Assembly: GCA_000934665.2 (NCBI GenBank)
Contig: KZ539046.1
Location: 51,856 to 71,855, forward strand
DNA length: 20,000 nucleotides
Direction of reading: 5' to 3'
DNA from: Catajapyx aquilonaris
Lineage: Eukaryota
In this document: positions 9,346 through 20,000 of the stretch, in pieces
Layout: every line of letters starts with the position of its first letter
Position numbering within the stretch: position 1 is the first letter of the stretch
The notes under the pieces: generated by a model
What the model was told of the DNA's origin: nothing
Database searches by the model: none
What the model saw: only the letters and a program-made list of their open reading frames with translations
Position numbers and translations under genes: made by a program

Positions 9346-9639
9346 TCAGCCAATCACCTGTATGAAAGCCTTGATGTAGTCGCCCTCTTGTATACCCAAG
9401 TAGGCTGGGGTATCACTTCCAGTACCAGCGCGACCATTCAACCGGAAATGGACCTGACACCACAACAGCTTCTGGAAATTGAGCACATCATCACATAAAT
9501 CATTGCTTGCAGAGTTCTGCATTGGATTCATGTCATCAACAAACATGATGCGGTGATGATACTGACCAGACGGTTACAAAAAAGCTGCCTTCAGCTTCTT
9601 AAACCGTGATGCGGTCTTCTTCATCATCACTTCTATCGG
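9346..9639 (-). pseudogene. Third SUMO-like copy (single domain visible); probable pseudogene, or a gene with an assembly indel
   Basis: C-half exon 9471-9358 KLLWCQVHFRLNGRAGTGSDTPAYLGIQEGDYIKAFIQ (acceptor aatttccag; donor gtgatt, or read-through VIG* to 9346). A 95-nt intron spans 9566-9472. The N-half reads PIEVMMKKTASRFKKLKAAF/CNRL|gtcagt with one extra T in a T6 run (9578-9583). The 5' end is unresolved. Confidence 0.75.
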
Positions 9640-9792
9640 CTGAAGTAAAGTATGCGGCCCATTAGCCGAATCAATTAGGAAACAGTACCTGAGGCTTGCA
9701 GACCCTTTGCATCGGTGTTTGGTGTGGGTTTAAAGTGGGGGAAGTGACCAGGGACCCCGGACTGAGCTCGACCAGAATGCAGCCGATCTAGT

Positions 9793-9793
<1 letters not shown>

Positions 9794-9856
<63 letters not shown>

Positions 9857-9871
9857 TTATCTATTTATCTA
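9794..9871. repeat. (TATC)n / (GATA)n microsatellite
   Basis: Directly visible tetranucleotide run next to the left TIR of the mariner element. Confidence 0.97.
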
Positions 9872-9878
9872 CATTCTG

Positions 9879-10688
9879 CAGGGTGTTCCAGAGTTGATGA
9901 CTCACTCTTTGAAACGCAATAATTACTTTCGAACGGAACAACATATATTTATTTAAAGTACGCGCCAAACCAGCAAGGGAGGGTGCGAAAATCTTCCATG
10001 TATAAGTGGCCGCAGCAATGCTCAGGTTTTGCAACAAAAATGACCGAAGCAAGACTGTCGTTAGAGAAACGTGTCCAGTGTGTTCGACTATATTCAGTGA
10101 CAAAAAATGTTACAGAAATGTGCCGTCAAATGGTAAACCTTTTCGGTGGACCAGCTCCTACCCGAAAAAACTGTTGCGAGAATAAACCAACGCAACGCGG
10201 GTTCAATGAAACTGGATGTGTCTTGGATCAAAAGAAACCCGGCAAAGGGAGAACAGTTCTGAACGCAGAAAACAAACAGCGCATCCGAGATGTACTGGAA
10301 AGTTCTCCAGCAAAAGCAAAATAAGTCCGACGCCTCTCTCTTGTGAGGTTATCTGAAGGAAAAGGTTTACCACCATCGAATCGACTCCCTGGAGCATCTG
10401 CGTGACATAATCACACAGGAGTTCAACGCGATCCCTGTTGGGAAGGCGTGCGACAACGTCGCCTTGCGATTGCAGGCCTGCATCGATGTGGAAGGGGGGT
10501 GGTTGACCATATAACCATGGAGAACAGGTATTAAGTTAGTATTTCTATGTAAGAGTGTGTTTGACTATGCCATTTGTTTTCCTTATCGCCTTTGTACTGT
10601 GAGAGGGTACGTACTTTAAATAAATATGTTGTTCCGTTCGAAAGTAATTGCGTTTCAAAGAGTGAGTCATCAACTCTGGAACACCCTG
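9879..10688 (+). mobile_element. Internally deleted Tc1/mariner DNA transposon (rosa/DD41D- or Tc3-like), 810 bp
   Basis: ~80-bp TIRs starting CAGGGTGTTCCAGAGTTGATGACTCACTCTTTGAAACG (9879-9961 / 10611-10688); TA on the right flank, TG on the left. N-terminal HTH-like frame from ATG 10040 (..FNETGCVLDQKKPGKGRTV..ESSP) is followed by the C-terminal motif 'L*GYLKEKVY...RLQACIDVEGG' (10341-10514). The catalytic core is absent. Confidence 0.88.
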
Positions 10689-10802: not shown

Positions 10803-10808
10803 TTTATT
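10803..10808 (-). promoter_or_regulatory. Candidate AATAAA polyadenylation signal of the tri-SUMO-like gene
   Basis: tttatt on + (AATAAA on -) downstream of the putative 3'-UTR exon beginning at 11167; position only. Confidence 0.3.
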
Positions 10809-11346
10809 ATTATTTTCGGGTCTTCGGGGATTCTATTCGGCCTTCTATTATTCTGTCATCCGCCAAATCAATGTTAAACTCGATGAACTCTGACTTCAAG
10901 TCAGGCTATGGATTAAGTGGGGGGAAAGACACAATCAGTATAGTCGTCAAAGTGTGTGAAATTGCACTGCTGTTTTAAAGTATTAACAATAATGAACATA
11001 GAGAGAACTTGAAATCTTTGGTAGCGAGTGCTCGAAAACAAGGGAGTGGCGTGGTATATCCTTTCCAACAGACCAGCATGTCCTCTTTCGCTCAACTCTC
11101 GTTGCCCAGCTCAGCTTCCATGGAATCCAGGATTACAGCTCAATCTATGAGCCTCATAGATTAGGACCTACATACACAATAACTGCAAAACCCATGATCA
11201 ATAATAAATGCATAAGTTACTAGAGGGTGATCTTCATTATTCATAATTATATAGTTGGTTGCAGTTTTTTAAGCACAACAAGGTGATCCAGCCAAACGTG
11301 TTCAGGGTTTACTATTAATCACAGACTCCAGCCGAATTGTACTAAC

Positions 11347-11478
11347 CTAGGCAGCTGGAGCTTTTAGTATGTTGACATGAATGGGATCTTCGTCCTCCAT
11401 GCCTAAGGAAGCGGGAGTGTGGCCGTCATGGATCTGCTGGCCATTGAACATGAAGACAACAGTAGACCTCAACAGCCC
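11347..11478 (-). CDS. Exon 7, SUMO-like domain 3 C-half and stop ([43 protein letters not shown])
   Basis: Acceptor ctattttcag; resembles SUMO1 '[35 protein letters not shown]'; TAG at 11349-11347. This exon is absent from the ORF track. Confidence 0.92.
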
Positions 11479-12308
11479 CTGAAAATAGATCACACTTCAT
11501 GAGTTCACAGCATTATTCCAATGGACTCGAACGGTCTGGAAACCATTGCTCTCAGCCAAATCTGAACATGATCATATCGGAGAAAATAAGTGGAAGTACC
11601 GACCCGCAGCTCGCAATACTGATCCATCACGTAGGCAAAGTTTGTGGTCGTCTTCAATTTAATTTTTACGAGATGCCCATCCTGACCAAAGGCATTCACG
11701 ATGATTATCTTAGGCTCCAGCTTGTGATTCTATGATTGGAATAGAGAAAGAAATCCCAGAGTAAATTATGTGCTCTAAATTATTTGTAGTCATAACCAAT
11801 AAGAGGGGTAGGCTATAGCAGCAAGAAGTACTCTGGCCACGAGTAAATATTATTGTAATTGATAGGTTCGTTCCGTAGTTGTATGACTTGCTGTATCTCA
11901 CCTGTATAACATGGATAGTGTCTCCCTCTTGCATACCCAAGGAGGCAGGGGTGGCACTTTCAGCGACTTGGTGACCATTGAACAGGAAATTAACATCTGA
12001 CCTCACCAGCTTCTAGAAATATGGCAACGTCATGGGATCATACCAAATAATCATTGCATGATTGTTGCACAAGCTGAATGACACCACAGTCTAATTTTTT
12101 CCAGCCAATTAATTTATTCCACCACATAAAGAATTTCTAGGTAAGTACGAGGGTTGATTCATAAGTCATTGCGCGTATTTTTTTATTCAAAAACGGTAAC
12201 ACATGCAGAGATGACCTGTGCTGAGTTTTGGAGATCCGACGATTACAATTTTATCTGGCATATAGATGTCGCCCATATCGCAAGGGGGGTGGGGAAACAA
12301 AGGGGGAA

Positions 12309-12339
<31 letters not shown>

Positions 12340-14413
12340 NCCCACCGCACCATCGCCCTAAGACGGCCCGAGCCTGATGCACTTGGAGCTGTTGGACGTT
12401 GCGTGCCGGACATTCGGCGATGGAGAACTCTGAAAGGCTAGAAAGGTCTCAGGAAGTTAGCATCCTCACTTATTCCTCGCCATCTCTTTGAAGTCCAGAA
12501 GTGCCACCATTTTGCCCTCGCTTGGAACTCTATCGCATTGAGGGCGATGGTTTTTTTAAACCGTCAGTGGCGATGGATGACACATGGCTCTGGTCATACA
12601 CATAGTGCTCTGACTTGTCCCAAAATCGAAATCAAGCTCCTGTGTTGTCCATCTCCGAGTGTCCCGCATGCAGCCAACTACAGCTCCAAGCGAGTCAAGC
12701 TCGGGCTGTCTCAGGGAGATGGTGCGGTGGCGGGGGGTGGGGGTGGGGTCACATTTCCCCTTTGTTTCCCCACCCCCACACGAAATGGGCGACATTTATA
12801 TGCCAGATAAAATTGTAATCGCCTGATCTTTAAAACTCAGCACATGTCATCTCTGTATATGTGTTACCGTTTTTGAATATATAAAAAATATGCTCAATGA
12901 CTTATGAATCAACCCTCGTATTACTAGTAATAGGGAATATTGATTACACTAGGTAGGTTAACAGTATTTTTTTATTTATTTTACCCCGTGCTCGAGCCTT
13001 CGGCTCGTCTTGGGGGGAAGGGGAAAGTTCCCAAGGGGGGGGGGGGGGGNGGGGGGGGGGGGCATCCTCGGTTTATAGTCATTATCGACTCTTTCAAATA
13101 CACCAGACCTTTTCTCTGGCCCCGGGCAGCTAAGGGAGTGCAATGCTGCCCCGGCGTGTCGGGTGAAAAGCGGAAAAAGACCCGGCCAAGCAGAGGTGAC
13201 GGGGACGGGATTTGAACCCCGGCCTCCCGCTTGGCTAGCCAGCGGCGTAACCACTAGACTACCACGCCTCCCTAGGTAGGTTAACAGTATTCAGATTCGT
13301 CAATTTTTTTTTTATCTAATTTAGGTTGGAATTAGAAAAATATCCTGGCATGTTGTCACTGATGGGGAATTAAACTGAATATAGGATATGGTGTCTTATA
13401 GCTTACGGCAGGGAAATCTGAAGAAAAAACTTTCAGAACAGAGAAGTGGTAAAGAATGATACTTACAAATTGGTTACAAAATGCTTCAAAGAGCTTCTCA
13501 AGCGGGTCCTGCTTCTTCATCGCCACTGTCATCCTCATGTTGCCATCCTGTCCTTGGACGTTGAAATGCATGTACTCTAACTTAGACCCGAAGGCATGCT
13601 GCGGAGGAATAAGTGGGAAAATATAACAACAGTGTAGTCAGCAATGTGGATGTTTACTCTCAGCAAAGCAAAAAGCAAGTGCACATCAACGATAAAATGC
13701 TCTACCAACAATATAACCTCTGACAGAGGAGACATAGATCAAAAGACATCAATATGATTGTATAAGTCCACGACTATATTGCTATACTGCTTGTATGACT
13801 ACATTTTCGGTTTGTACCTTGAAATATTGACGGATATGTCCTTCTTTAGATGATGCACCATCCACTTGGATGACGGCCTGGATTGTGTCTCCGTCCTGCA
13901 TGCCCAAGGAGGCAGGGGTATCACTCCCAGATATTTGGTGTCCATTATACAGGAAATTTACATCAGACAGGCGCAGCCCCTGGAAATTGATAACATCATA
14001 ACAATTCCCAAAGTAACATTCCATGCAGTGTTGAGCAAGCTATATATGACAACACAACATCCTCAGGCTATTAGGTTCCAGTGTACAAATAATTCATAAG
14101 TAAAAGATCATAGAGATGAAGCTTACTGACCCAACTGACACACAATCTTGCCATCAGGCTCTCAATCTCCTTCTGCTTCCTCGTCCTCTTATGTGACATC
14201 AGGGCAGTATTGCCATCTTTCAGTTGTATGATTAGCTCGATGCAATCCACGAGAGGCATCAAGTCATCCTGTGGATGGAGTGAGGGAAAATATAACACAA
14301 CAATCACGCTTAGTCCGTATATGTTCATCAGTGTTCATCACCTGATGCTGGGCCGGAGTTGCCTCATCATGATGTCGTTGGCCATCATCGCTGCCTCCAG
14401 TCGACGGGTCCAT
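11347..14413 (-). CDS. Spliced 7-exon gene encoding a ~290-aa protein with three tandem SUMO-like (beta-grasp) domains and no C-terminal GG
   Basis: Hand-assembled exons 14413-14342, 14268-14131, 13979-13818, 13598-13467, 12012-11902, 11729-11604, 11478-11347. All have GT..AG boundaries, all lengths are multiples of 3 and there is no internal stop. Start codon is in a gccATGG context with an upstream in-frame TAG. SUMO-family motifs recur three times: (G)QDG/KDG, Y/F/L-C at the end of helix 1, F-L/M-F/Y-NG-x-Q-I/V, TPASLGM(Q/E)(D/E)(G/E)D-x-I. Confidence 0.88.
11604..11729 (-). CDS. Exon 6, SUMO-like domain 3 N-half ([42 protein letters not shown])
   Basis: Acceptor tccaatcatag; donor CGG|gtcggt; 126 nt; GQDG, KLKTTT (cf. 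SUMO1 KVKMTT) and YCELR (cf. YCQRQ/YCERQ). Confidence 0.9.
11902..12012 (-). CDS. Exon 5, SUMO-like domain 2 C-half ([37 protein letters not shown])
   Basis: Acceptor atatttctag; donor CAG|gtgaga; 111 nt; SUMO C-half motif. Confidence 0.92.
12148..12918. mobile_element. Mariner-type non-autonomous foldback MITE (771 bp) in intron 4
   Basis: TA|CGAGGGTTGATTCATAAGTCATTG ... CAATGACTTATGAATCAACCCTCG|TA; imperfect inverted arms of ~280 bp (12148-~12428 vs ~12645-12918); this region is absent from the paralogous intron near 17105. Confidence 0.9.
12969..13271 (-). mobile_element. tRNA-derived SINE with 20-bp target-site duplication
   Basis: A box TAGTCTAGTGG (13261-13251), B box GGTTCAAATCC (13218-13208), A-rich tail near 12969-12982. 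TSD CTAGGTAGGTTAACAGTATT at 12949-12968 and 13272-13291. Confidence 0.9.
13467..13598 (-). CDS. Exon 4, SUMO-like domain 2 N-half ([44 protein letters not shown])
   Basis: Acceptor ttattcctccgcag; consensus donor TTT|gtaagt; 132 nt; resembles SUMO2/3 '[35 protein letters not shown]'. Confidence 0.92.
13818..13979 (-). CDS. Exon 3, SUMO-like domain 1 C-half plus linker ([54 protein letters not shown])
   Basis: Acceptor aatttccag; clear SUMO C-half motif. Donor AAG|gtacaa at 13818; an alternative in-frame donor CAA|gtggat would end the exon at 13866. Confidence 0.88.
14131..14268 (-). CDS. Exon 2, SUMO-like domain 1 N-half ([46 protein letters not shown])
   Basis: Pyrimidine-rich acceptor ttttccctcactccatccacag; donor TGG|gtcagt; 138 nt; pattern I-x-L-x-I-Q-x-x-DG...L-M-x-x-L-C fits the SUMO beta1-beta2-alpha1 segment. 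Confidence 0.8.
14342..14413 (-). CDS. Exon 1 (leader [24 protein letters not shown])
   Basis: gccATGG Kozak context; 72 nt; donor CAG|gtgatg; 73-nt phase-0 intron ending tccacag. No homology support, so this is the least certain exon. Confidence 0.6.
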
Positions 14414-14885
14414 GGCCAGACGTTGGGCCAGAGTGTATACCGGGGCAGAAGAAAGAGACAGAAGAACTGACCTGGAAATGTTCTATTCCGTTTGACAGCA
14501 CGACAGAATCCGATGCTGGTTGTGCGGGGGTTGCCACATCGGAACATAATCAGACACCTGGCAATACTGTTCTAATACTCAGCTTTATTTTTTAATTAAT
14601 TAAGGCTACCCATCCATACATGGCTAATTTAGCTTTTGTAAGTTTCTAAAAAGGAAATTGCGGTGGTTCATTGCAGCGTTGCCACGTCCATTCCGAAATG
14701 GCCGTTGGAAGGCGGGAGTTTCAAGTGATGGTCATGAATGGTGACATGAATTACATCTATTTTATTATTACAGATTATGACCAGATATCTCAAGTTAATT
14801 AGGAAACATAGTGGCCCAGGTCTGGAGTTGTTCCAGTATTTGGTGCTGTGTAAATGACATTAACCTCTAGGAGCTACATATATAG

Positions 14886-15071
14886 CAGTGGTTCTTGAGT
14901 GGTTCCCAACCTTTTTCGGGTCGCGACCCCCATTTATGATAGTAAAATAACCTGCGACCCCCCCCCCCCCCCCGCCGAGTGTTAGTAGGCGTTGAAAAAA
15001 AAACCTTTTGGTGATGTTTTAATTTATGAAAATTACCGCGGGCACGCGCGACCCCCAGGTTGAGAACCACT
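14886..15071. mobile_element. hAT (Charlie-like) MITE
   Basis: Termini CAGTGGTTCT / AGTGGTTCCCAACCT ... AGGTTGAGAACCACT with repeated subterminal GCGACCCC motifs; right terminal base and TSD are lost. Confidence 0.7.
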
Positions 15072-15387
15072 TTTTTGTCCGAACAGTTATCGGAAAATTG
15101 CGCGTAGCTGCTACTTTTTTAGCAGTGACTTGCAAACGATGATTTTTCGGAGGAACGGGAATATTCCCTGCGAATCGTAGACTGTTGAAGTGGCATACTT
15201 GCTGCCCACTGAAAATTGAGGGTCAAGCCTGGAAAAAAGAGGGTCACACATGCCATGGGATGTGTGACCCTCTTTTTCCCATTCCCCATTCCCCCGACAA
15301 ATCACCGGTTGCAAGTCACTGCTTAAAAAGTAGCAGCTACGCGCAATTTTTCGATAACTGTTCGGACAAAAAAGATTAGACACCCTG
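15071..15387. mobile_element. Left-truncated Tc1/mariner MITE with long inverted arms and a central hairpin
   Basis: Right end ...GATTAGACACCCTG|TA (CAGGGTG terminus). Arms 15071-~15143 vs ~15300-15373. Central palindrome AAAAAGAGGGTCACACAT-n8-ATGTGTGACCCTCTTTTT (~15233-15277). Confidence 0.75.
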
Positions 15388-15696
15388 TATAGCATAATCA
15401 AGGTTCAAGAAACTAATAAAAACCGGTGAATTTAGGTATCCAAAGAAAAATCGTCCGCATTTTTAGCAACATTTTATTTGAATTATTCCGAATATTAAAA
15501 ACAATGAACATACAGAACTTCTTGAAACCTGAGATCTTTGGTAGTGAGTGCTCGAAAACAAGGGAAGAAAAAACAAAAGTGATATTATATGGTATTCCTT
15601 CCAACAGTCGAGCACATCCTCTTTATCTTAATTGCCCTTCTTCAGTTCAGCTTCCACAAAACCTAGGGTTACAGCAGAGAGATTAGGACCTACGTA

Positions 15697-15796
15697 CTAT
15701 ATCGCCCAAAAAGATAGAGACGATTTTGCATTTGACTCAAGTGCAACTTGCACTTGAATCAAATGCCAATCGTCTCTATCTTTTTGAGCGATATAG
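15697..15796. mobile_element. 100-bp palindromic MITE with TA target duplication
   Basis: TA|CTATATCGCCCAAAAAGATAGAGACGATT...AATCGTCTCTATCTTTTTGAGCGATATAG|TA; near-perfect hairpin over its whole length; empty site 'gacctacatacacaataac' at ~11165-11183. Confidence 0.9.
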
Positions 15797-15968
15797 TACA
15801 CAATAACTGCAAAATCCATGATCAATAATAAATGCTGTACAAGTGGGTGATCCTCATTATTCATAGTTGGTATATACCAGTTTATTCCTAAACACTTTTA
15901 TGACAAGGTCCAACCAAATACTTGTTCAGGGTTTACCATTGATCACACACCCAAGCCGAACTACAAAC

Positions 15969-17042
15969 CTAGGCAGCTGGAGCTTTTAAAATGAGAGTGT
16001 CAATGCGATCTTGTCCCTCATGTGTAAAGAGGTGGAAGTGTGCCATCATTGATATGCCGGGCATGGAACATGAAGAGAACCGTAGGCCTCAACAGCCCCT
16101 GAAAATAGATGACTTCATGAGTTCACAGCATTACTATTATTCCAATTGACTCTCACAAGTCACAAGTCGTTCTGGAAACCATTGTTTCAACCAAATCTGA
16201 CAATGTTACTTCAAATCTGAAAAAATAAGTGGAAGTATACTGACCTCGCAATACGGGTCCTTATCCATCAGGCAGGCATGGTTCGCGGTCATCTTCACAT
16301 CTTATCTTATTTTATGCGTGAGGCCAGCATCCTGACAAAGCACATTCAAGATGATTCTCTCTGGCTCCATGTGATTCTGTGGTTGCCTGGTTGGAGTATA
16401 ATAATAATCCTATATAATAAAATAATAATCCTTGGGTAGTGCCTGACCCTCTTGGGGTATGCGGCACGGACCTTTATTGTCTCTTTATTGTACATGGTAC
16501 AGTGGGACCTCGATTTTTGAAGCGCCCGGGCCTGACAGGAGGGGATGTGCAAGGTGCAGTGCAATGTCTTGGGTGTAGTCGTTTTGTGAACTCCCCCGGG
16601 TGGTTTGTCTTATCGGAAATACCACCCGAGACGAAGCCAGAGACAGCCGAACTCTGCACGAGATGATGGGGTCCCAGGGCTGGGATCGAACCCGGGACCT
16701 TAACATCCGTGGGCGCATACATTACCGCAGCGCCACTTCACACAGTAGGCCCTATATAGAGAAAGAGAAATGCAAGTGGCCATAATGTGCTCTAAATTAT
16801 TTGTAGTCATGAACAATAGTAGCAGTATAATTATCATCCGCATGTAACAAGCGAGGAAATATTATTGAATTACTAATATATTTTGTTCCGCAGTTGTATG
16901 ACTTTCTGTACTTGTCACTCACACTCACCTGTATGATAGCCTGGACGTTGTCTCCCTCTTGCATGCCCAAGGAGGCAAAAGTGTCGGTTCCAAAAATACC
17001 GTGACCATTATGGAAGAAATGAACCTTGTGACTCAGCAGCCC
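15969..17042 (-). pseudogene. Pseudogenised partial duplicate of exons 5-7 of the tri-SUMO-like gene
   Basis: Exon 17042-16929 is intact ([38 protein letters not shown], donor gtgag). Exon 16376-16245 reads NHMEPERIILNVLCQDAGLTHKIR*DVKMTANHACLMDKDPYCE with TAA at 16304-16302. Exon 16098-15969 is 130 nt versus 132 nt (two 1-nt deletions) and ends in the same AAAGCTCCAGCTGCCTAG. Confidence 0.88.
16417..16750 (-). mobile_element. Second, unrelated tRNA-derived SINE with (ATT)n-like tail
   Basis: A box TGGCGCTGCGGT (16735-16724), B box GGTTCGATCCC (16692-16682), (ATT)n tail. Candidate TSD CCTATATA at 16409-16416 and 16751-16758. Absent from the paralogous intron 5 near 11740. Confidence 0.8.
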
Positions 17043-20000
17043 CTGGAAATTGGCAACATCATGAGATCATACCAAAAAGTCATGGAGCAAACTGAATGAT
17101 ACCACAATTATTAACTTAATATGTGTCACTGACAAGGAACTTATAAATAAACCTCAAGTAGGATAATATTATTGTGTCTTAGCCTGTGGCAGGGGAATCT
17201 GAAACTTCAGATCAGATGTGGTACCGTATATCACGCATCAGATGAAGGATTTGTTGTTGCCAAGTAGTCTATGTGTGCAGTAATCAGCAGGGTCTTCTTT
17301 TTGGCGTAATGTCGAATTAAATAATTTTAAGCTTTAACAGCAACTGCTACAACAAAACTCATTGACGTCGAAATATTTCCAAGAACTTTGATTCAAATTA
17401 TGTCGAATAAATTATTGATGATAGAGAGATGATAGTCGCGAATGTTCAATAAATCCACCATTTTGAAACTATAGTCCAGAAATACGATCGCACACTATAA
17501 TGGAAGAAGCAACCCGGCTGGTCGACACAGAGCTCCTATTATAACCGCTTTTTCCCAACGGGACACCGGGGGAAAATACAAAGTGATGTCAGAATAGAAA
17601 ATAATAGCATCTGTGCAGTTTTTTCCCCTAAACTGAAATTGTCGCCGCATTTTGAAAAGTGCGTCCAGAGGTCAACGATTGGTCCCCACTGCATCGGAGG
17701 GTAGAGAGAGTTAACGCTCTTTGCTATTTTTTTCATTTTTTTTTTGAAAATCCGGGAGGGGTGAGAGGGTTGAGGCTGAGAGTGAATGAGATGCGGGGGA
17801 ATGCATCACATTAGTGGGCTGCCAATCTCTGCCGCCTCTGACATGACTAATCCATCGGCCCTCCAATCAAAGGACCGGCTCTCTCCGGGACCGCGTCCGG
17901 AATATTCCAGGGAGACCTGTTTTGGGGTATATACTCTCCCCATCGCACCAAAATATGTGCAGGGGGAAGTCGCACCCCTCCCCCTCTCTAAAAAAAAGTG
18001 TGGTCTAATGTTTTGTCCGGCGTGGCCTGTCAAATTCAAAGTTCTAATTCATACATGGCCTCCTGAGTTTGCAAATCCTCATCAATAGGTTTTTCATTCC
18101 AGGATTTCAATTCCAGGTTGTCAGATGATGCCAAATTGGGAATGACATCTTCTTTGACGCTACAGGCTCTCAATCATCAAACTGCCCATGACGAATATTT
18201 TGGCGATATTCATGTGGGTCCATTTTTTTTTCTATTCGAGGCTGTCCGATATCTGGTTGAGCAGTCGGCTTGATAACAATTGCGGCCTGCATCTTTTTGC
18301 TGGCACGCTTGTATTGTTATGGAAATTTCGTCTGGAATATTATAGTGGCTCCGACCAACCGTACTTTTCTCACTTCCAGTTACTTGACGCTTTTTCCTCT
18401 GGCTCTCAAATTATTCTCGATGTCGTCTGAGAAGGCAGACAACGTGTTACAGGAGACTGCTTTGTAAAAGCCTGGGTAAATGAGCCGGGCAAATTGTGTG
18501 CCAGGATAGATATAAGTATTCATGTTGAGTGCACGGTTTTTTTTTCTAAGGCAGATTGAGATAAGTTACTCTCTTTAACTTGCAAATTGATCCAAAGTGG
18601 GTTTCAGTTCTGGAAGGGATTAAGGTGCATAATTTGGAAGCATGATGTTCATATAGATTTTAATGCTGGTGGTGGTGCCAATTTGCCTCTTGGTTTACAT
18701 AATCATTAGGTCACACACGGGTTATTTTAAGACACGAATTGCGTAACTGACTTTAGAGCTGAAATTCTTAGTAGAGCTATGTGAACAATCTTTCTACTGG
18801 AAAGAAAATTATTTTGACCAACATGCACTTGCTATTGACACATGGCTATAAAAAACAAAGTCATCGAACCCTGTAACGGATTCCTTGGTCAATCCGACGC
18901 TTCCAATAATGATGGGAAGGCTTTTGGAAAGGCTTGGAAAATTGAGGGGTGTCTGAAAAAGAGTGTGTCGACCTGACCGCCTCTATTTCGTCGCAGTTAT
19001 TCTCATGAAATTCCATTTGCGCCGTAATGGGATTTAGTGGCAAAGCGCGGAATGGTGCTTCTCGTGGGATTGACGCCAACTCCACGTTTGGTATAATATC
19101 AAGTCCTTCTTTTCTCACGATGCGATGGATTTACAGGGAGGCCAGGGCTGCAAGATTGACTCTCAACACTTTTCAAAATATGTTAGGCCCATTGTCATTT
19201 TGATCCAATTATGGAAGAAGCCAAAAAATTCAGGCTTGAAAATTCAACGTGTGTATATCATGTCGCTCCTTCCAGTTGGTTCTATTCTGAAAGGAAGATG
19301 CGCTTGATTACTCGGGCGCTTTTGTAGCCATAGACTCCGACACTGTTGCTAATGGATGGGAAAATCACCTTGTCTTCCTTCATTTTCACGCCTCACAAAC
19401 TCGTCCAACTAGCTTAATTGTGAAGCAATTAATTCCGATTTATGCATGAGTTTTCGCCTACTGGTGACTGAAGGATGAAAAGGTAGTTACCCTTTGTTGT
19501 ATATGTTATTAAAGTAAGTGCTGGTGACCTAGTCTTACTTGAAATTGTGGAAGCGAAAACTGATGTATAATAGTACATAGTAAGTTTATAACATGCTAGT
19601 GTAGACGCACTGGACAAACTGTGGCCTTTTTGGAAGAATTCAGCTACCAAAATGATTTTTAAATGCCATATTTTTTTTCTAACTGCTCCCACGCTTCGAT
19701 ACACCTGCACGACACCTCAGACACATCAAGGACCTTTTAAAGTCAAATCCCACAAAAAAGCACCCCTTCTTATTCCAGCAACATCCATCTACCCTTTTAA
19801 AAAATTACGGCCCAATTTGTGAATACAACCCGTTGTCATCACCCCTACCTGCAGGCAACCCACCTGACCACAAATCCCGCACGAGCGCCCCCACAGCTCA
19901 ACCACTCGAACCAATTACCCCTGATTGTTATCTGCCCTCATCCTCCTCGGACCCAATCAGTCAGCTCACAAGTCAAGTATCAATATTTAGGCACTGCAGG

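Follow-up and report, generated by a model that had tools for sequence, protein, structure and literature searches.

SUMO-like domains (SLDs) without the C-terminal di-glycine (GG) have been described in the RENi family (Rad60, Esc2 and NFATC2IP/NIP45) and in concatemers of the grasses. RENi proteins are defined by a polar, low-complexity N-terminal region together with one or two SLDs, the first of which (SD1) is the more divergent (PMC549199), and acidic residues in the second SLD, Rad60 E380 and NFATC2IP D394, contact the backside of Ubc9, with charge reversal abolishing UBC9 binding (PMC11065178). In the grasses, the DSUL/GSUL2 locus encodes SUMO-like concatemers in which the diGly motifs have been lost (Hammoudi et al. 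2016, PMC6680281), and the fusions found in maize (DiSUMO-like) and rice (Os07g38700/38710) arose independently of each other (PMC6680281). The present analysis concerns a window of 20,000 nucleotides (nt) of the Catajapyx aquilonaris contig KZ539046.1 (assembly GCA_000934665.2, positions 51,856 to 71,855 of the forward strand), in which a gene for a protein with three GG-less SLDs had been proposed at 11347-14413. The locus probably encodes a non-conjugatable SUMO-like concatemer of a known, little-studied type, which would be a lineage-specific offshoot of a tandem cluster of SUMO paralogues.

The gene model consists of seven exons on the minus strand, and these are given below in the order of the reading frame.

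14342-14413, minus strand: exon 1, a leader of 24 amino acids (aa) after the ATG, rich in His, Asp and Gln, with donor CAG/GTGATG and no Pfam family
14131-14268, minus strand: exon 2, 46 aa, presumed N-terminal half of SLD 1, no Pfam match
13818-13979, minus strand: exon 3, C-terminal half of SLD 1 and a 16-aa linker, with DGA at the canonical GG position
13467-13598, minus strand: exon 4, N-terminal half of SLD 2
11902-12012, minus strand: exon 5, C-terminal half of SLD 2, reaching ...HVIQ at donor CAG/GTGAGA, precisely where a QQTGG tail would start
11604-11729, minus strand: exon 6, N-terminal half of SLD 3
11347-11478, minus strand: exon 7, C-terminal half of SLD 3 with the tail NILKAPAA and the stop TAG at 11347-11349

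When joined, these exons form a frame of 873 nt (290 aa plus stop) that runs from 14413 to 11347 with no interruption. All six introns are GT..AG with pyrimidine-rich acceptors, and each of the seven exons begins in phase 0 and has a length that is a multiple of three. The introns between units measure 219 and 172 nt, and intron 4 measures 1454 nt. The start ATG at 14413 lies in the context gccATGg, with an in-frame stop 23 codons upstream, and the encoded protein is laid out as the leader, SLD 1, a 20-aa linker, SLD 2, a 6-aa linker and SLD 3. The limits and the C-terminus of the seven-exon, approximately 290-aa GT-AG model put forward in the sequence-only reading were reproduced exactly. No psi-K-x-E site occurs in the 290-aa protein. 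An extension of the gene past the TAG was considered and rejected, because the GT that follows the stop cannot remove it.

Contigs from the DNA runs X1 and X2 span 11200-12173 and 13246-14600 with no differing letters, and the exons are therefore not an artefact of assembly; however, X1 and X2 belong to a set of DNA runs (X1-X4) from a single sample and may be the data from which the assembly was made, so that this agreement is not independent support. Contigs of run X5 lie on repeats only (8 of 30 bins) and cover no exon. Joints within the DNA contigs (e.g., 11953 to 13973), with sides of 21-49 letters, fall between similar exons or repeats. On balance, we consider expression of the gene slightly likelier than its silence.

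To assign the units to a domain family, each exon was scanned separately against Pfam, where the curated cut-off for Rad60-SLD (PF11976) is 23.8 bits. Exons 3, 5 and 7 scored above this cut-off (32.6 bits, 7.1e-8; 31.2 bits, 2e-7; and 32.9 bits, 5.8e-8, respectively), exons 4 and 6 scored below it (13.6 bits, 0.062, and 13.5 bits, 0.065), and the Pfam scan gave no match for exons 1 and 2. The model was also spliced in silico and scored with a canonical-SUMO hidden Markov model (HMM) built from 30 single-domain SUMO matches and free of any window sequence; units 1, 2 and 3 reached 54.7, 63.1 and 68.7 bits, respectively. Unit 2 covers positions 24-95 of the profile and unit 3 positions 24-92, and both alignments cross the exon junction, which shows units 2 and 3 of the predicted protein to be complete SLDs. 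Exon 6 on its own reached 19.1 bits with the canonical-SUMO HMM, and hhalign of single exons gave a probability of 93.8% for exon 6 (E 1.8e-7) and of 24% for exon 4 (E 8e-4).

Unit 1 aligns only at profile positions 41-104, that is, from the second half of helix alpha1, and the hhalign alignment within this unit begins at residue 35. A third complete beta-grasp is inferred here from the length, position and phase of the exons. The earlier claim of three SUMO-like domains consequently held in full for units 2 and 3 and, in unit 1, for the helix and the C-terminal half, whereas the N-terminal hairpin of unit 1 went undetected; the Pfam and HMM scores bore out the SUMO-like assignment itself. The three units are 43% (1 vs 2), 40% (2 vs 3) and 39% (1 vs 3) identical to one another by blastp, and their best identities to single-domain SUMOs are approximately 35% for unit 1, 42% for unit 2 and 48% for unit 3. 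The C-terminal halves in exon 5 (11902-12012) and exon 3 (13869-13979) are 82% identical over 90 nt, closer than the remainder of units 1 and 2, which suggests a more recent duplication of, or gene conversion between, these two exons.

Canonical SUMO is a single ubiquitin-like domain of approximately 90-115 aa with a C-terminal di-glycine. The gene described here shares the SUMO-type beta-grasp domain, and it differs in its 290 aa and three domains and in the absence of a GG within 5 residues of the expected position in any of the three units, the tails of which read DGASS, VIQ/NHK and KAPAA. Both the lack of a terminal GG in every domain, with NILKAPAA as the final tail, and the resulting misfit to canonical SUMO had been noted from the sequence and stand. 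Without the di-glycine there is no entry to the SUMO E1-E2 pathway (PMC2946365), and the product would accordingly undergo no SUMO protease maturation, E1 activation or conjugation, so that any function must be non-covalent. Poly-SUMO precursors (P0001, P0025 and P0031, and P0005 of Rhizophlyctis rosea) likewise hold several SUMO units in one reading frame; however, they keep GG after several or all units (three of three in P0025) and could thus be cleaved to conjugatable monomers in the manner of polyubiquitin, in contrast to the gene here, with none of three.

The comparison with the RENi family is closer in some respects. Common to both are non-conjugatable, tandem SLDs without GG, a non-covalent mimicry of SUMO (for the gene here, a proposed one) and a first SLD that is more divergent than the last, and these features are what would favor reading the gene as the NFATC2IP/Rad60/Esc2 orthologue of the organism with an extra SLD; the divergence of the first SLD in particular recalls RENi SD1 (PMC549199). 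Searches of PDB sequences with phmmer point away from such an origin. Exon 7 matched SUMO1 chains from 1.3e-6 and SUMO2/3 chains from 5e-5, with NFATC2IP not among the 60 matches listed, and exon 3 matched 5gjl, a 98-aa SUMO-like chain, at 5.9e-7, SUMO2/3 chains from 5e-5 and NFATC2IP at 2e-3 to 4e-3. For the C-terminal halves, the match to SUMO1/2 chains is thereby better than that to NFATC2IP chains by a factor of 40 to 1000. Furthermore, RENi proteins have an extended polar N-terminus of at least 100 aa and two C-terminal SLDs (one in plants) that are closer to RENi than to SUMO, whereas the gene here has a leader of only 24 aa and three units nearer to true SUMO than to NFATC2IP, and the adjoining decayed paralogues described below are typical of a young paralogue cluster, not of a conserved single-copy gene. 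No coding-looking open reading frame (ORF) was seen upstream of the gene before the decayed copy, although undetected exons further upstream are conceivable. The proximity of the units to SUMO1/2 and the missing polar N-terminus argue that the gene is not a RENi orthologue, for which we see only a very remote chance, and the misfit to RENi claimed in the sequence-only reading was upheld by the leader, the unit number and the affinity of the units. An identity as a ubiquitin repeat was also rejected, because the polyubiquitin rows that head the PDB matches of exon 7 each add up nine 6-bit stretches, none of them significant by itself.

The exon structure links the gene to canonical SUMO genes. 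Six of the 16 matches inspected (P0078, P0079, P0085, P0113, P0120 and P0139) are exon-sized ORFs of canonical SUMO genes, and in these six the SUMO homology begins at the exact residue where exons 3, 5 and 7 begin, after unrelated residues of which the last is Q. The coincidence fits an old, shared ancestral position for the phase-0 intron before 'GL...', and by this shared position the gene looks like a SUMO gene with its two-exon core triplicated. The ancestral SUMO core would have lain on two exons, with the intron just before the 'GL...' of strand beta3, and this two-exon module, in phase 0 at both borders, would have been duplicated within the gene to three units; because both borders are in phase 0, such an internal duplication leaves the frame unbroken.

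To find further SLD pieces in the window, the seven exons were compared to it with tblastn and its six-frame pieces were scanned with the HMM, and two sites were found, both on the strand of the gene. They are listed here with the segment to which the first belongs.

16929-17042, 16245-16384 and 15969-16098, minus strand: decayed tandem copy of exons 5, 6 and 7, respectively, in which the copy of exon 6 contains an in-frame stop and that of exon 7 is split (75% by blastn)
15520-17090, minus strand: the copied segment, including introns and approximately 340 nt of 3' flank
9349-9471, minus strand: lone SLD C-terminal half exon, downstream, matching exon 3 at E 9.5e-10 and the canonical-SUMO HMM at 31.1 bits, in an ORF that ends ...IQVIG and then a stop

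No partner exon for an N-terminal half was found near the lone exon at 9349-9471, which is 83.6% identical to the upstream decayed copy over 55 nt. The gene and the upstream copy are 68.5% identical in exon 5, 68.9% in intron 5, 69.0% in exon 6, 87.7% in intron 6, 79.2% in exon 7 and 76.0% in the 3' flank. Intron 6 of the decayed copy is thus better conserved than any of its exons (68.5-79.2%), which is odd for a pair of gene and pseudogene and hints at fast divergence of the exons or local gene conversion. Relative to the SUMO-homologous frame, the upstream copy is disrupted by five frame-breaking indels (5, 2, 7, 1 and 1 nt) and a stop and also carries an insertion of 3 nt, and the gene has none of these.

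The distribution of such proteins was examined by running a profile of the five C-terminal halves in the window over 1.84 billion representative proteins, which returned 646 proteins at E <= 1e-3, of which 42 reached <= 1e-10 and 2 reached <= 1e-30. Architectures were counted in the best 150 of the 646 with the canonical-SUMO HMM, admitting only domains that reach profile position 85; 144 of the 150 have at least one such domain, and GG is absent from 52 proteins with at least two domains and from 29 with at least three. Among these 29, P0027, P0033 and P0035 hold three SLDs each in 235-248 aa and lie on contigs of 1-3 kb, P0045 of Medicago truncatula holds four and is labelled both 'NFATC2-interacting protein' and 'SUMO 3', and P0086 is a 'Rad60-SLD domain-containing protein' of Caenorhabditis tropicalis; further named matches are as follows: P0026 is an MMETSP transcript, P0050 is a JGI 'small ubiquitin-related modifier', and P0005 of R. 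rosea keeps some of its GGs. The gene has in common with these database proteins the three or more SLDs, the short linkers and the lack of GG, with lengths of 200-370 aa being frequent; however, none of them is an orthologue, and the best identities of the gene, unit by unit, are to single-domain SUMOs (35-48%). The uniqueness that the sequence-only reading implied is therefore not borne out, given these 29 proteins and the published GG-less concatemers of grasses (PMC6680281), whereas its view of the gene as lineage-specific appears correct, with no orthologue among the listed matches or in two word-index searches. Apart from the grass concatemers and RENi, a literature search for animal proteins with three or tandem SLDs gave no results.

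A domain tree was computed in the quick mode of IQ-TREE (LG+G4, 85 columns) from 234 domain rows, 10 of 244 having been removed as belonging to proteins of more than six domains; apart from the units of the window itself, the rows span the profile from position 32 or before to position 88 or beyond, and the sampling leaves out bona fide RENi, SUMO1 and SUMO2/3 domains of the same phylum. Units 1 and 2 are sisters (SH-aLRT 92), unit 3 is unplaced, and 127 of the 226 inner branches are open. The gene has no unit-by-unit counterpart in any multi-SLD protein, and in most other such proteins the domains cluster by protein or with close relatives. No orthologous family of triple-SLD proteins is indicated by this tree, and concatenation seems to have happened many times independently. 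With the grass DSUL/GSUL2 genes, the gene modelled here shares the head-to-tail fusion of SUMO-derived ubiquitin-like domains in one gene and the loss of GG, as well as a tandem SUMO-like locus in duplication and decay (here the copies at 15969-17042 and 9349-9471, on the same strand). The two systems differ in that the gene here has three units, of which 1 and 2 pair together and none pairs with the domains of another multi-SLD protein; since the tree, albeit poorly resolved, gives no sign of common descent with the grass GSUL2 clade, the likeness is one in kind and not of family descent. Maize DSUL reportedly has a genetic function, to go by the title of Srilunchang 2010.

The explanation that we place first, at somewhat less than even chances, is that the locus holds a SUMO-derived concatemer gene from a small, tandemly duplicating cluster of SUMO paralogues, the product of which, if expressed, would act as a mimic of a linear SUMO chain. 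Against it has to be set the possibility of an intact-looking but functionless relic in a birth-and-death array of SUMO paralogues, not yet disabled and either silent or transcribed without consequence, which we judge somewhat unlikely. The selection data bear on both. Among the three intact units, the ratio of nonsynonymous to synonymous differences per site (pN/pS) is 0.56-0.69 over 73-75 codons and 0.39-0.42 in the C-terminal halves, with synonymous sites near saturation for the pairs that include unit 3; between exon 5 and the two decayed C-terminal halves it is 0.84 and 0.88. Near-saturated synonymous sites at a pN/pS of 0.39-0.69 presuppose that purifying selection acted for a long time after the triplication, which speaks against a relic, as does the fact that the units, 39-43% identical to one another, still score 55-69 bits each to canonical SUMO. 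The relic explanation must also accommodate 873 nt open over seven exons with six intact pairs of splice sites, when all five frame-breaking indels and the one stop fall in the 75%-identical copy, that is, within 369 nt of a copy diverged by approximately 25%. Altogether, the selection signals are only moderate, and the evidence for selection is mixed.

Several observations weigh against a functional concatemer, and a number of them favor the relic. Two adjoining copies are already dead. Between the gene and the upstream copy, 266 of 367 aligned exon bases (72.5%) are identical, compared to 222 of 289 in introns 5 and 6 (76.8%) and 76% in the 3' flank, and the ratio of nonsynonymous to synonymous substitution rates (dN/dS) for this pair is 0.74 over 117 codons. 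Exons that are no better conserved than non-coding DNA, together with a dN/dS of 0.74, imply that constraint since the duplication was weak or absent, or that the exons diverged fast; the ratio itself fits a neutral copy beside a weakly constrained gene and is also near the value for two neutral copies. The N-terminal half of unit 1 is degenerate: exon 2 alone has no SUMO similarity (none by Pfam, 0.05% by hhalign), only its last 12 or so residues align, to SUMO helix alpha1, and unit 1 may therefore not fold as a beta-grasp. No orthologue of the triple-SLD gene was found among the best 150 of the 646 profile matches, and the word-index searches gave 11 candidates for exon 3, none at E <= 1e-3, and no near match for the 85-aa exon-3 ORF, so that the protein collections searched hold neither an orthologue nor a near-identical ORF. 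The surroundings are rich in repeats, with repeat insertions inside intron 4, and Pfam found no family at E <= 0.01 in the 27 other ORFs of 70 aa or more in the window, which therefore offers no neighboring gene for context. A canonical AATAAA is absent within 500 nt of the stop, the nearest being at 10808. The basic residues of the groove for SUMO-interacting motifs (SIMs) are partly lost, with K to A and R to Q in unit 2 and R to L in unit 3. Lastly, all five SLD C-terminal halves in the window have N in the F-x-F-N-G motif, where SUMO2 has D in 'FDG'. The column of this N would be the equivalent of the Ubc9-backside residues NFATC2IP D394 and Rad60 E380.

The phase of the exons also bears on whether the units form one protein. 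Because all exons are in phase 0 with lengths in multiples of three, any exon skip preserves the frame, and the locus could on this account give shorter products, such as exon-skipping isoforms or a single-SLD protein from exons 1-3 by read-through of the exon 3 donor; the frame of exon 3 continues for 11 codons to a stop at 13782-13784, and an alternative in-phase GT follows ...AVIQ in exon 3. However, read-through adds no SUMO-like tail, units 2 and 3 are without a start codon context or an upstream stop-free leader of their own, and the introns between units, only 219 and 172 nt long, have polypyrimidine tracts and good acceptors. Separate shorter products are hence improbable, with a slim chance at best, next to a single protein of three units.

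The three-unit product can also be compared with engineered linear poly-SUMO. In the engineered fusions (4bkg di-SUMO2; Keusekotten et al. 2014, PMC3901395), units are likewise arranged head to tail with the GG replaced, and these fusions serve as chain mimics that bind multi-SIM readers by avidity (PMC3901395). The RNF4 SIM domain binds linear SUMO fusions and K11-linked chains equally well, and in yeast RNF4 brings about the degradation of a linear tetra-SUMO2 reporter (PMC3901395); RNF4 no longer binds SUMO2/3 with the groove mutations QFI or IKR (PMC12077520). Among the SUMO-type PDB chains, 4bkg_A matched exons 3 and 7 best, which is due to its two units. The engineered fusions consist of identical SUMO2 units with intact grooves and designed spacing, whereas the units here are 39-43% identical, joined by linkers of 20 and 6 aa, with grooves that are partly kept. 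In the HMM alignment, the 'QFKIKR' stretch of the groove corresponds to KIKLKT in unit 3 and to TVAMKK in unit 2, with both hydrophobic groove positions kept, and in the MAFFT alignment unit 1 has polar residues at the beta2 groove positions.

If expressed, the concatemer would make non-covalent contacts only. Most likely, it would imitate a short SUMO chain in linear form and engage readers with SIMs via units 2 and 3, and unit 1 would possibly act as a spacer or offer a new surface. Such a bivalent or trivalent mimic of SUMO for SIM readers, with unit 3 the most SUMO-like, is plausible by analogy with the engineered chains; what we infer for this mechanism is that the exons would be transcribed and spliced into a single mRNA, that unit 1 would fold, that SIMs would be bound and that the protein would have a role in the cell. 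The scaffold or decoy function put forward in the sequence-only reading is plausible but gains no support from the present analysis. A more far-reaching proposal, which we regard as quite unlikely, is that the gene is expressed as a natural, uncleavable tri-SUMO 'chain' in an animal-like lineage, titrating or scaffolding multi-SIM readers such as RNF4-type ligases and SUMO proteases, and that its cluster turns over fast through conflict or lineage-specific regulation; a role in conflict or regulation would explain exons that diverge at least as fast as introns while the frame is kept. An expressed gene would be a natural experiment on the cellular effect of an uncleavable linear SUMO chain and another independent case of SUMO-paralogue clusters yielding non-conjugatable concatemers, which in the literature searched are described only for grasses. 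More broadly, the 29 database proteins suggest that GG-less multi-SLD proteins are a widespread, largely unstudied class, to which a single unannotated locus adds modest weight.

Intron 4 of the gene contains the following repeats.

12133-12428 and 12644-12931: arms of an inverted-repeat element, 82% identical over 301 nt, with a long C run with N at 12341 and contig depth in the thousands
approximately 12950-13290: piece resembling a short interspersed nuclear element, with a G run with N at 13051

Summed contig depth ranges from hundreds to approximately 150,000 over the repeats at 12133-13290, compared to approximately 25-50 on the exons, with the maximum of approximately 150,000 in the piece at approximately 12950-13290, and by its high depth the inverted-repeat element is a member of a repeat family. 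Rfam and ARAGORN found no RNA family and no tRNA in the window; the piece at approximately 13195-13272 (minus strand) may be tRNA-derived, to judge by eye from motifs resembling boxes A and B. Downstream of the gene, an inverted repeat (9879-9962 vs 10610-10688, 94%) flanks a 133-aa ORF on the plus strand (9923-10324) without a Pfam family, and the whole of 9879-10688 probably represents a small transposable element. At 9786-9871 there is a short tandem repeat, and two palindromic or inverted repeats (91-92% identity) lie at 15070-15374 and 15694-15799, between the gene and the decayed copy.

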